64,000 bases of DNA from the NCBI GenBank assembly GCA_964352335.1, contig CAYGRO010000001.1, positions 31,830 to 95,829 on the forward strand. The letters are read 5' to 3'. The position numbers were made by a program, and so were the translations under genes. The DNA is from an uncultured Gammaproteobacteria bacterium. GTDB taxonomy: Bacteria; Patescibacteriota; Patescibacteriia; VMEV01; CAYQCH01. Positions 18,985 to 52,511 of this stretch are shown here, piece after piece. The first letter of the stretch is position 1. Each line of letters starts with the position of its first letter. The notes below the pieces were generated by a model. The model saw only the letters and a program-made list of their open reading frames with translations, was not told the DNA's origin and made no database searches.

Positions 18985-19120
18985 ATAAGTAGTTTGTAAT
19001 GATGAAATAATCTCTTATATCTAAGTATATTTGAAAAACATCTATAAAACAAAGCACCCGATCGAAATCGGGAGCTTTGGATATTCGTACGCTCTCTGAG
19101 CGCTCGAACTGATTTGCTTT

Positions 19121-19144
19121 TGGCTCCGAGGGTGGGACTCGAAC
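19121..19144 (-). repeat. Inverted partial copy of the tRNA-Asn 3' end (T-arm plus acceptor: GTTCGAGTCCCACCCTCGGAGCCA)
   Basis: A 22/24-nt match to positions 19961-19984, on the opposite strand, 160 bp upstream of the tRNA gene. Confidence 0.7.
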
Positions 19145-19211
19145 TTAATTTTTTTAAAAACTATACGCCAATTTTAAAGAAAAACCCAAAAAATAAGTAA
19201 GCTCCACCCTA

Positions 19212-19240
19212 TTGCATCCAAGACCACCTTATGATATAGT
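19212..19240 (+). promoter_or_regulatory. Candidate sigma70-type promoter for tRNA-Asn (TTGCAT-17-TATAGT)
   Basis: Hexamers with a 17-nt spacer lie about 60 nt upstream of the tRNA 5' end. Confidence 0.35.
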
Positions 19241-19333
19241 TTTTTTACGAAATGACCGAAAGGCGGTCATTTTCTGATAGAAAAATCTGGCTTGTGGGCT
19301 CCGAGGTAGCTCAGTGGTAGAGCAGTTGGCTGT

Positions 19334-19946
19334 GAAACACTTATATCTGTCCCCATTCTTTATAACTAAAGTCTGGTATGGCAGAGAAAAGAACCTATCG
19401 CGACCGCGCAGAATATCTCAAAAAAGCTGTTGCAAAACGTAGACGAAAGTTACGTGAACAAGCTGTTGAGTATATGGGCGGTAAATGTCAACGCTGTGGC
19501 TATAAAACTTGCATCGAAGCATTAGATTTCCACCATCTTGATCCTCGTGAAAAAGAATTTGGAATATCTGCATCAGGAATGACTCGTTCTTGGGAACGTA
19601 TCAAAACTGAGCTAAATAAATGCATCATGATTTGTGCAAATTGCCATCGCGAAGAACATGCGAAAATTAAACGCAGCTTTAACGAGTAATCGTTATCGAA
19701 AATTGGGTGAATTCGGGGAAGCCTGTTAAATGGTAATCCCGAGCCAATCCTTCGCCGGGAAGTTACTCCCGCAAGCAAGCTTAGCCAAAAATGGCAGGCC
19801 TGCCTGCCGTAGCTTTAGCGAAGGCAGGTGTAGAGACTAGTAGGTGAGTCCCAACAATAATCCTACAATAGCGCCCAATACCCCATAGCTTTATGCGACG
19901 GGGTAATGAGATAGTCCACCCCATTATGAAAATAATGGATAATGTG
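19334..19946 (+). other. Group I intron (IC3-like) in the tRNA-Asn anticodon loop, between positions 35 and 36
   Basis: The core contains GGTGTAGAGACTAG and GAGCCAA..CTTCG..CCGGGAAG, matching the Azoarcus/cyanobacterial tRNA-intron catalytic core. The 5' exon ends in U and the intron ends in G. Confidence 0.75.
19378..19689 (+). CDS. HNH homing endonuclease encoded within the group I intron
   Basis: CQRCGYKTC…DFHHLDP…N…CANCH gives CxxC / HH / N / CxxC-H HNH motifs. The ORF lies inside a peripheral intron region. Confidence 0.8.
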   Translation: MAEKRTYRDRAEYLKKAVAKRRRKLREQAVEYMGGKCQRCGYKTCIEALDFHHLDPREKEFGISASGMTRSWERIKTELNKCIMICANCHREEHAKIKRSFNE

Positions 19947-20001
19947 TAACCAATTGGTCGTGGGTTCGAGTCCCACCCTCGGAGCTTGCTAGCTAGATTC
20001 T

Positions 20002-20031
20002 AAAAACACGCGATATCCGCGTGTTTTTTTA
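20002..20031 (+). terminator. Terminator AAAAACACGCGATATCCGCGTGTTTTTTT after the tRNA-Asn 3' exon
   Basis: Perfect hairpin followed by a T-run. Confidence 0.75.
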
Positions 20032-21223: not shown

Positions 21224-21362
21224 AGCGCTAACGGGGTCCGGGGTAATAGTTGCTTCTTAGAAGTAATATAGTTGCATGCACATACAAGAAGCTCCTATTA
21301 CCCCGGCGACTTTTTTGCTTCGTTTTTTGGTCGTTCAAAAAATGAAGGCCTAGCGGCGAGCG
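21224..21362 (+). ncRNA. Conserved ~138-nt structured element, copy 1 (candidate novel ncRNA)
   Basis: A second copy lies at 35213-35350 with conserved blocks (AGCGCTAAYGGGGTC, GCTTCT…AAGAAGCTCC, TTTTGCTTCGTTTTT…CAAAAAATGAAGGCC, GCGGCGAGCG). A compensatory helix is preserved: CCGGGGTAATAG/CTATTACCCCGG here versus CTGGGGGAA/TTCCCCCAG in copy 2. Confidence 0.6.
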
Positions 21363-30798: not shown

Positions 30799-30883
30799 TG
30801 GTACCCGAGGAGGGACTCGAACCCTCAAGCCCGAAGGCATACGATTTTGAGTCGTACGCGTCTACCAGTTCCGCCACTCGGGC
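30799..30883 (-). tRNA. tRNA-Leu(CAA)
   Basis: Reverse complement GCCCGAGTGGCGGAACTGGTAGACGCGTACGACTCAAAATCGTATGCCTTCGGGCTTGAGGGTTCGAGTCCCTCCTCGGGTACCA, with a long variable arm and anticodon CAA. Confidence 0.85.
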
Positions 30884-31007: not shown

Positions 31008-31083
31008 TGGTTGCGGGGTCCGGACTCGAACCGGAAATCTCCAGGTTATGGGCCTGGCGAGATGCCAATTTCTCTACCCCGCG
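31008..31083 (-). tRNA. Initiator tRNA-fMet(CAU)
   Basis: Reverse complement CGCGGGGTAGAGAAATTGGCATCTCGCCAGGCCCATAACCTGGAGATTTCCGGTTCGAGTCCGGACCCCGCAACCA. Shows the initiator hallmark C1·A72 mismatch and anticodon CAU, and position 33 appears to be C. Confidence 0.85.
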
Positions 31084-31755: not shown

Positions 31756-32691
31756 ATGAACATTTTTTTTGACATTCTTATTTTTGGGTTTTTAGTTTTT
31801 GATATCCTCATTGCTATTTGGTTTATCAAAAAAAAGAAGCCACAACTCAACCGATCAAAATCCTTCTCATTTATAACATTGGCATTCATTGCTTGGGGGG
31901 TTATTTTTTATGGGAGTTTTATTGCACCAAAACGAGTTAGTGTTGACCATCAAACAATAAACTTGTCAGATTCACCAAAGGAAACTATTACTGTGGCCAT
32001 CATTTCAGATCTACATGTTGGGCCATACAAAAAAGAAGATTACTTGCAAAAGGTCATTAATAAAATTATTGATCAAAAACCAAACCTTGTTTTTATTGCA
32101 GGTGATTTTGTTTCAGACTCAATTGAGGAAGTAGGCTACCTAGCCCCATTAAAAACACTCACTCAAACTATTCCAACATATGCCGTCTTAGGAAATCACG
32201 ATTATGATTTATCAGGAGCAGATGATGAAATTGATGACGAATTGGCTCAAAAAATAAGGACCGAACTCAATTCTTTGGGAGTAATACTTATGGAAGATGA
32301 AAGCCGTCCATTAGCTAGTGGCAAACTTTGGATAACAGGATCTCAAGAAATTTGGACAAATAGGAATGATCTATCATCAGCATTAAAAACACGCTCCAAC
32401 CCAGAACTCCCCTCTATTTTGCTCACCCATAATCCAGATATTATCGAACAACTCCAACCAGAAGACGAGGTACAGTTAGTGATCGCTGGCCATACACATG
32501 GTGGACAAATCCGCCTCCCCTTTCTTGGTCCAATCGGGATTATCCCAAATGTGCTAGGCCAAAAATATGACCAAGGTTTTTTTGATTACAATGGAGTAAA
32601 ATTATTCATCACCAGCGGATTAGGAGAATCTGGTCCACGCGCGAGATTATTTAATCCGCCAGAAATAGTGATGATGGAGATTGGGTTTTAA
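31756..32691 (+). CDS. Membrane-anchored metallophosphoesterase (calcineurin-like)
   Basis: Motifs DLHVGP, GDFV, GNHDY and GHTHGG. Confidence 0.75.
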   Translation: MNIFFDILIFGFLVFDILIAIWFIKKKKPQLNRSKSFSFITLAFIAWGVIFYGSFIAPKRVSVDHQTINLSDSPKETITVAIISDLHVGPYKKEDYLQKVINKIIDQKPNLVFIAGDFVSDSIEEVGYLAPLKTLTQTIPTYAVLGNHDYDLSGADDEIDDELAQKIRTELNSLGVILMEDESRPLASGKLWITGSQEIWTNRNDLSSALKTRSNPELPSILLTHNPDIIEQLQPEDEVQLVIAGHTHGGQIRLPFLGPIGIIPNVLGQKYDQGFFDYNGVKLFITSGLGESGPRARLFNPPEIVMMEIGF

Positions 32692-34239: not shown

Positions 34240-34315
34240 GGCGATGTAGCTCAGGGGTTAGAGCGATGCCTTCATAAGGCAGAGGTCGGTGGTTCAATTC
34301 CACCCATCGCTACCA
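34240..34315 (+). tRNA. tRNA-Met(CAU), elongator; possibly tRNA-Ile2
   Basis: GGCGATGTAGCTCAGGGGTTAGAGCGATGCCTTCATAAGGCAGAGGTCGGTGGTTCAATTCCACCCATCGCTACCA. The 1-72 pair is a G·U wobble rather than a mismatch. Confidence 0.8.
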
Positions 34316-45677: not shown

Positions 45678-45753
45678 TGGTGGACCCGACAAGACTCGAA
45701 CTTGCCACCTCCTCGGTGCAAACGAGGCGCTCTACCAGATGAGCTACGGGCCC
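45678..45753 (-). tRNA. tRNA-Ala(UGC)
   Basis: Reverse complement GGGCCCGTAGCTCATCTGGTAGAGCGCCTCGTTTGCACCGAGGAGGTGGCAAGTTCGAGTCTTGTCGGGTCCACCA, with the G3·U70 Ala identity pair. Confidence 0.9.
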
Positions 45754-48287: not shown

Positions 48288-48362
48288 TGGAGGCTCGGGC
48301 GAGGATCGAACTCGCGAATAAAGGTTTTGCAAACCTCTGCCTTACCACTTGGCTACCGAGCC
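48288..48362 (-). tRNA. tRNA-Cys(GCA)
   Basis: Reverse complement GGCTCGGTAGCCAAGTGGTAAGGCAGAGGTTTGCAAAACCTTTATTCGCGAGTTCGATCCTCGCCCGAGCCTCCA, with U73. Confidence 0.85.
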
Positions 48363-52435: not shown

Positions 52436-52511
52436 GCGGGTATAATATAATGGTTCATTATGTCAGCCTTCCAAGCTGAACATGCGGGTTCGATTCCCGC
52501 TACCCGCTCCA
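52436..52511 (+). tRNA. tRNA-Gly(UCC)
   Basis: GCGGGTATAATATAATGGTTCATTATGTCAGCCTTCCAAGCTGAACATGCGGGTTCGATTCCCGCTACCCGCTCCA. Confidence 0.8.

Follow-up and report, generated by a model that had tools for sequence, protein, structure and literature searches.

Analysis of a 64-kb stretch of DNA (the window; positions 31,830 to 95,829 of contig CAYGRO010000001.1, assembly GCA_964352335.1) strongly supports the conclusion that a tRNA-Asn(GUU) gene on a Patescibacteria chromosome is split between anticodon bases U35 and U36 by a mobile, IA-type group I intron that carries a gene for an HNH endonuclease. This conclusion is carried by the anatomy of the locus, covariation in the ribozyme core, a match to the group I family and purifying selection on the endonuclease open reading frame (ORF). 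The arrangement is a further example of a kind that is published and has experimental support. The number of bacterial tRNA group I intron classes was raised from 4 to 21 in a study that first listed a tRNA-Asn class (Williams 2020, bioRxiv 10.1101/2020.01.27.920355). More recently, 15 tRNA-Asn(GUU) genes with group I introns at position 35/36 were described in 95 complete Patescibacteria genomes; four of the tRNA-Asn introns carry HNH (PF01844) genes, and introns at 35/36 in tRNA-Asn as well as tRNA-Asp self-spliced accurately in vitro, with the product sequenced and a mutant of the terminal intron guanosine (ωG) as control (Nakagawa et al., mSystems 2026, PMC13011429; bioRxiv 10.1101/2025.07.03.662931). 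Because these papers, of 2020 and 2025-26, already describe the same arrangement, the locus is not a discovery, and the view of the initial annotation that an Asn(GUU) host with a 35/36 site and an HNH ORF is unusual, the hosts being limited to tRNA-Leu, -fMet, -Arg and -Ile, is outdated (Williams 2020; PMC13011429).

When the two exons (Table 1) are joined, they form a 72-nucleotide (nt) cloverleaf that ARAGORN calls as tRNA-Asn(GUU), with a 7-base-pair (bp) acceptor stem, a U1-A72 pair, G73 and the anticodon loop CUGUUAA, just as the initial annotation had assembled the two halves. Its placement of the insert also stands: the 613 nt at 19334-19946 split the anticodon between bases 35 and 36, are preceded by U19333 and end in G19946. 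The same ...CTGT/intron junction is common to 63 related loci (designated here by L numbers). Shifting the junction by +1 yields a tRNA-His(GUG) call, which was dropped, as it requires an exon that ends in G and an intron that ends in U. ARAGORN found no second tRNA-Asn elsewhere in the 64-kb window. The six other tRNA genes of the window all encode the 3′ CCA. The intron-bearing gene does not, its G73 being followed by CTT, so that CCA would be added to this tRNA post-transcriptionally.

Over the insert, the Rfam group I intron model RF00028 gave a significant match at 19623-19938 (E 1.9e-17) that spans the full model (1-253) and, with 75.8 bits, exceeds the gathering score of 50, which bears out the group I assignment. 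Rfam hits to Leu and Trp leaders, tmRNA and Atu_C9 in the region fell below their gathering scores and reflect the tRNA T arm and the terminator. For the structure test, helices P2 to P9 were laid out on window coordinates and scored on an alignment (A2) of 64 homologous introns. In this set, 88.8% of the helix cells are paired compared with 66.5% in shuffled alignments, and the covariation score is 0.585 compared with 0.183 after shuffling and at most 0.12 when the partners are slid by 1-3 columns. Compensatory change is seen in 39 of 54 pairs, distributed over P2, P3, P4, P5, P6, P8 and P9. The covariation supports a conserved P3-P9 core with its P3/P7 pseudoknot. P7 is invariant, as expected of the guanosine-binding helix, and so is the terminal ωG. 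The closest relative is L087, a 930-bp contig with 87% HNH identity and identical exons, which is the sole informative comparison for the locus; against it, compensatory changes are present in P2, P7.1, P8 and P9. P1 contains the splice-site wobble U19333-G19673, the GCAGC of the internal guide sequence recurs without change at the corresponding place of all 64 introns, and the Rfam model likewise puts the P1 3′ strand at 19673-19678. A search for a perfect 6-bp pairing of exon and guide fails in loci with other anticodon stems (GACTGT and CGCTGT exons); exon position −5 gives no covariation because P1 in those loci consists of the universal 4 bp only. The P6 extension, with the palindrome GGCAGGCCTGCC, is found in the window and L079, and L022, L068 and L073 have part of it. 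Its absence from L087 marks the extension as a peripheral-loop insertion that is recent and lineage-specific.

By its structure, the intron belongs to subgroup IA. In the Michel-Westhof scheme, extra P7.1/P7.2 helices between P7 and the P3 3′ strand define IA and are absent from IC3. The window intron has such a helix, P7.1, a hairpin of 27 nt that separates the P7 5′ strand from the P3 3′ strand, and this single-hairpin form with the conserved loop UGAGUCCCAACAAUAAU is shared by 17 introns. Most homologues have two hairpins there (P7.1 and P7.2), and there is none in the Omnitrophota-labelled L041, L067, L071, L075 and L081 or in L020 and L037. Grouped by two, one or zero hairpins in this region, the introns that bear this HNH family at the tRNA-Asn site have ribozymes of at least three forms. 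Of 28 introns at 35/36, covariance-model classification has assigned 25 to IA, and it has placed none of the Patescibacteria tRNA introns in IC (PMC13011429). Because the extra covarying P7.1 hairpin marks IA and the homologues are published as IA (PMC13011429), the earlier description of the intron as IC3-like does not hold. The two core motifs on which that description drew, GGTGTAGAGACTAG from 19827 and GAGCCAATCCTTCGCCGGGAAG from 19741, are indeed present, but neither is J8/7: the former is J6/7 and the P7 5′ strand and the latter the P4 3′ strand/P6 junction. Both are near the general Rfam consensus and therefore identify no subgroup. The string GGUGUAGAGACUAG may occur in the Azoarcus intron as well; a full-text search for the core string returned no text.

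The HNH ORF begins 44 nt past the 5′ splice site, and its 3′ end overlaps the internal guide sequence and the P2 5′ strand such that its stop codon, TAA (19687-19689), forms part of the P2 GUAA tetraloop. Because the guide sequence is the P1 3′ strand, the ORF occupies the P1 loop. Hence the initial annotation was correct in calling an HNH endonuclease, as PF01844 and phrog_2255 bear out, but not in calling its location peripheral, as the gene runs from the P1 loop through the guide into P2. The protein scores 26.1 bits against PF01844 (gathering threshold 21.4) and matches the phage HNH family phrog_2255 with E 5.5e-30. More than 926 homologues share 60-87% identity with it. Across 22 homologues there is no variation in the two CxxC pairs, the HH and CANCH motifs or a basic N-terminal helix, nor in the catalytic and zinc-binding residues C37, C40, H52, H53, C86, N88, C89 and H90. 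No NCBIfam model was found for the 103-residue protein, and its closest sequence match in the PDB goes no further than a group II intron maturase, in its endonuclease domain (E 2e-4). Compared with its L087 counterpart, the window ORF has a synonymous divergence (dS) of 0.77 and a nonsynonymous divergence (dN) of 0.069. The resulting dN/dS of 0.09 shows that the protein is under purifying selection. Given the family, location and spread of the ORF and the selection on it, its protein most likely acts by cleaving tRNA-Asn alleles that lack the intron, which would drive homing. Some otherwise intact introns contain truncated or broken ORFs (71 residues in L060, 70 in L075, and a broken frame with a shifted start in L019), which fits the usual gain-decay-loss cycle of homing endonucleases.

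Upstream of the gene, the initial annotation had noted a 24-nt inverted copy of the tRNA 3′ end. The copy exists, but the exact inverted repeat is 22 nt long (19123-19144 on the minus strand and 19964-19985 on the plus strand; 0 expected, from 100 shuffles), and the extra CA completes the CCA that is missing from the intact gene. CCA is encoded in both this orphan fragment and the orthologous tRNA-Asn of L087. Furthermore, the first 30 bases of the trailer that follows the fragment match the L087 tRNA-Asn trailer at 20 of 30 positions, including all of the first 11 (11/11), compared with 5 of 30 for the trailer of the window gene itself. Because its trailer matches that of the relative, the fragment is taken to be the ancestral 3′ end and trailer of tRNA-Asn. 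This displaced 3′ end with its L087-like trailer supports the past rearrangement that had been suggested at the gene. The present tRNA-Asn, in turn, ends in another copy of positions 53-74, which has a foreign trailer, and inverting 19145-19963 would restore the arrangement of L087. As a rearrangement at an essential tRNA gene, the orphan inverted 3′ end is small and can be dated, and it too could extend the published work.

It is conceivable, though unlikely, that the fragment is instead the attachment-site scar of a tyrosine-recombinase element that integrated in the tRNA T-loop/3′ end. Work by Williams in 2002 reportedly identified tRNA segments as integrase crossover sites, and the fragment corresponds to tRNA positions 53-76, the classic crossover segment. 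The non-native trailer of the intact gene, with native CCA and trailer kept by the fragment, is also what would be seen after integration. However, integration leaves direct repeats that flank an island, whereas this repeat is inverted and 155 nt upstream of the gene. In addition, neither an integrase nor an island was found near tRNA-Asn among 16 window ORFs searched with Pfam (10 larger ones at 8.2-13.4 kb and 24.0-32.7 kb and six near the tRNA at 15.9-23.9 kb), all of which are housekeeping, and no similar inverted fragment occurs in the 62 other loci, where the only matches, in L013 and L017, are partial and on the same strand. The simplest account remains that the ancestral 3′ end was displaced by an inversion or inverted duplication.

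The rearranged state of the locus also speaks for a rival reading in which the intron, or the HNH gene in it, is a relic in decay; the tRNA would be a pseudogene, or the ORF would have lost its activity as a homing endonuclease. The lack of a CCA that all six neighbouring tRNA genes encode and the truncated ORFs of L060, L075 and L019 point in the same direction. We regard decay as very improbable, as all core helices are intact and differ from those of L087 by compensatory changes, the full-length ORF retains every invariant residue and has a dN/dS of 0.09, and the window contains no other tRNA-Asn. Weaker still, and in our view dismissible, is the tRNA-Thr(UGU) with an intron two bases further 5′, at 33/34, that ARAGORN reports with introns enabled (tRNA-Thr(tgt) i(33,613)): that junction would likewise follow a U (19331) and the intron end in G (19944), but the splice-site wobble in P1 is U19333-G19673 while U19331-A19675 is Watson-Crick, U1-A72 and G73 suit bacterial tRNA-Asn by established identity rules, ARAGORN calls the spliced 35/36 product Asn, and the identical two-base mis-call is documented by Nakagawa et al., with 35/36 sequenced in the spliced products of homologues (PMC13011429). 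Indeed, ARAGORN and tFind mis-call many such genes as Thr(UGU) at 33/34 (PMC13011429). Default ARAGORN skips the intron-split gene entirely. With standard tools missing the tRNA-Asn or calling it tRNA-Thr, correct annotation is the main value of the locus; because of such errors, a reduced genome seems to be without an essential tRNA and completeness estimates are distorted.

Several points weigh against a tRNA-Asn gene served by a spliced and mobile HNH-bearing intron. We infer splicing of this particular copy by analogy with its homologues, and the endonuclease activity and target site of the HNH family from sequence. P1 is short, 6 bp here, and only the 4 bp CUGU/GCAG are universal. As some homologues carry decayed ORFs, the HNH protein is dispensable for splicing. 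The predicted hairpin at the start codon in the window pairs only the G of the AUG. Finally, the window covers 64 kb of the genome, and a second, intron-less tRNA-Asn may lie elsewhere.

If the intron acts by the standard two-step group I pathway, the precursor would be transcribed from the tRNA promoter, and P1 would arise when exon GGCUGU pairs with guide GCAGCU (19673-19678), the splice site lying at a U-G wobble. Helices P3-P9 of the core would fold and exogenous guanosine would attack 3′ of U19333, after which ωG19946 would enter the guanosine site in P7. Exon ligation would then restore the GUU anticodon, with CCA added afterward. The 103-residue HNH protein would cleave intron-less tRNA-Asn alleles, and repair would copy the intron into them. 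A ribosome on the HNH ORF would open P1 and P2, and because of this unfolding one transcript could be translated or spliced, not both.

Translation of the ORF may itself be restrained. In RNAfold minimum-energy structures, the whole AUG is paired in 39 of 59 loci, compared with 26% when the upstream sequence is shuffled, in a hairpin that in those homologues is built with the first intron bases. The stem occurs in the compensatory variants GGUAU/AUGCC, GCUAU/AUGGC, GAUAU/AUGUC and UUCAU/AUGAA. We infer from these predicted structures a translational control of the HNH ORF, in which the start-codon hairpin near the 5′ splice site would hold HNH translation low in most homologues. The same stretch often reads TGnTATAAT, an extended −10-like element, 6-9 nt 5′ of the ATG, and as an alternative to gating by the hairpin an internal promoter could produce a leaderless HNH mRNA.

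Of the systems known, the Patescibacteria introns of Nakagawa et al. are the most similar to the window intron. They share with it the host tRNA, the site, the phylum, the U(−1)/ωG junction and the mis-call as Thr(UGU); some carry HNH (PF01844) genes, and the P7.1 hairpin of the window fits their IA classification. In contrast, the window copy is from a draft genome outside their 95 complete ones and has a single P7.1, the ~60-nt P6 extension, no encoded CCA and the orphan inverted fragment. The IC3 introns of Azoarcus tRNA-Ile(CAU) and cyanobacterial and plastid tRNA-Leu(UAA) also interrupt the anticodon loop and have a compact core of ~200-270 nt, short P2 and P9 hairpins with GNRA loops and similar P4 3′ strand/P6 junction and J6/7-P7 sequences. 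However, they are found in other tRNAs at 34/35 or 36/37, are without P7.1 and usually have no ORF. The Synechocystis PCC 6803 tRNA-fMet intron is likewise a bacterial tRNA group I intron that encodes a homing endonuclease, but its enzyme, I-Ssp6803I, is a PD-(D/E)XK nuclease (PF11645), and the intron is at 33/34 in a cyanobacterial host. HNH nucleases are encoded by the phage group I introns of I-HmuI (SPO1) and I-TevIII (RB3), and in the T4 td intron RNA structure restrains translation of I-TevI, sparing the folding of the ribozyme, a likeness to the control proposed here. The phage HNH enzymes differ in that they reside in phage protein-coding genes and are larger, with separate DNA-binding domains, whereas the 103-residue window protein has only a basic N-terminal helix and a zinc-bound HNH core.

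The survey of related loci used one genome per species and found an HNH relative in more than 556 loci, of which the best 80 were sorted by layout. The ORF lies inside a tRNA-Asn 35/36 intron in 68 of these 80 and adjoins tRNA-Asn in 11, a distribution that backs the reading of the window as an ORF-bearing tRNA-Asn intron; the remaining one is truncated. Ten of the adjoining HNH genes are free-standing next to a tRNA-Asn with a short, ORF-less intron at 35/36 (175-344 nt), and in two of these (L020 and L037) the interval from the HNH gene to the tRNA holds a TTGACA-17-TATAAT promoter. This layout looks like collaborative homing, in which, as Bonocora and Shub are said to have described in 2009, a free-standing endonuclease cooperates with an ORF-less intron, or like an intermediate to or from the ORF-bearing intron. 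In the eleventh (L030), a free-standing HNH gene is 110 nt upstream of an intron-less tRNA-Asn. The cyanophage psbA system of F-CphI offers a parallel to the 10 loci with HNH just outside a tRNA-Asn with an ORF-less intron, and also to L030; the window differs from it in that its ORF is intronic, and cleavage by the present family is predicted. L030 and L034 (L030:2501-2969 and L034:2501-3147) are syntenic, with the same downstream flank and, in both, a free-standing HNH upstream of tRNA-Asn, but the 175-nt 35/36 intron is present in L034 and absent from L030. Between them the 5′ exon, which comprises D arm and anticodon stem, diverges far more than the 3′ exon, as expected from co-conversion of flanking exon with the intron.

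In the study of Nakagawa et al., endonuclease-bearing IA introns at 35/36 were found only in Patescibacteria (PMC13011429). The survey places HNH-bearing tRNA-Asn introns also in Omnitrophota-labelled drafts (L020, L041, L067, L071, L075 and L081), in six Acidobacteriota/Pyrinomonadaceae-labelled bins from several studies (L032, L038, L042, L055, L059 and L070) and in an Elusimicrobia-labelled draft genome (L061). The labels "TPA_asm uncultured Gammaproteobacteria" and "Bdellovibrionales" look unreliable because the introns are near-identical to Moranbacteria ones. With its gene either within the intron or next to it, the HNH-bearing form has a far wider distribution than the four published cases suggest. 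Tentatively, and with the chances somewhat against it, the HNH gene may be mobile in its own right, with tRNA-Asn as its target, shuttling between a place beside the gene and the P1 loop in multiple phyla and in at least three ribozyme cores, with its translation gated by the hairpin. If so, tRNA-Asn introns would be actively mobile across phyla, contradicting the published view, for which only complete genomes were used, that tRNA introns with an endonuclease are rare and their horizontal transfer limited. The survey could extend the published work, as it contains a natural intron-plus/minus pair in L034 and L030 and a conserved hairpin that apparently gates translation of the endonuclease.

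Table 1. Positions of the features discussed, in the window unless an L number is given
Feature	Position	Strand	Basis or remark
Terminator-like hairpin beyond the orphan fragment trailer	19057-19072	−	Same strand as orphan fragment
Orphan tRNA-Asn 3′ fragment with trailer	19091-19144	−	Fragment, tRNA positions 53-76 including CCA, 19121-19144; trailer, ~30 nt, 19091-19120
tRNA-Asn(GUU) 5′ exon, positions 1-35	19300-19333	+	34 nt, last base U35; ARAGORN on spliced sequence
Group I intron, anticodon 35/36	19334-19946	+	613 nt, ωG 19946; RF00028 and covariation
Predicted hairpin around HNH start	19346-19385	+	Stem 19346-19351 with 19380-19385; RNAfold
HNH endonuclease ORF, 103 residues	19378-19689	+	Pfam PF01844, phrog_2255, dN/dS 0.09
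Internal guide sequence GCAGCU (P1 3′ strand)	19673-19678	+	Pairs with exon GGCUGU 19328-19333
P2 hairpin	19680-19695	+	GUAA tetraloop 19686-19689; 6/6 pairs compensatory, 98.4% of cells paired
P3 5′ strand	19702-19709	+	Covariation
P4	19713-19718 with 19737-19742	+	Covariation
P5	19721-19723 with 19732-19734	+	Covariation
P6	5′ strand 19743-19744, 3′ strand 19828-19829	+	Covariation
P6a	19749-19755 with 19818-19824	+	Alignment A2
Lineage-specific P6 extension	19756-19817	+	~60 nt, not in L087
P7 5′ strand GACUA	19835-19839	+	Pairs with 19912-19916; guanosine-binding helix
P7.1 hairpin GUAGG...CCUAC	19840-19866	+	Loop UGAGUCCCAACAAUAAU; 17 sequences, 100% paired, 5/5 pairs compensatory
P3 3′ strand	19872-19879	+	Covariation
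P8	19880-19884 with 19900-19904	+	Covariation; followed by J8/7 and P7 3′ strand
P7 3′ strand	19912-19916	+	Pairs with 19835-19839
P9, GAAA loop	19921-19927 with 19932-19938	+	Covariation
tRNA-Asn 3′ exon, positions 36-73	19947-19984	+	38 nt, CCA not encoded, CTT next; ARAGORN
Intrinsic-terminator-like hairpin	20002-20028	+	3′ of tRNA-Asn
Other tRNA genes, each with CCA	30799-30883, 31008-31083, 34240-34315, 45678-45753, 48288-48362, 52436-52511		
Free-standing HNH with ORF-less intron	L008:2501-3090, L020:2501-3297, L037:2501-3207, L076:2501-3143		
Free-standing HNH with ORF-less intron, further loci	L015, L029, L039, L040, L072, L034		

The topoisomerase I of the window is, among named matches, closest to proteins of Candidatus Uhrbacteria and other Patescibacteria (62-66% identity), and the host chromosome is thus that of a member of the Patescibacteria (candidate phyla radiation, CPR). 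The genes around tRNA-Asn are chromosomal housekeeping genes by Pfam, including those for an M23 peptidase, DprA, TopA, RelA/SpoT and ParAB. The HU-DprA-TopA-RelA-ParBA block is kept in the two nearest genomes, relatives at 88% and 71% that were compared through topoisomerase I synteny, and in both of them tRNA-Asn is absent from within 10 kb of this block. A 120-nt non-coding stretch of the window (21230-21348) is 81% identical to L082:1487-1605, from the 88% relative, in a different genomic context.

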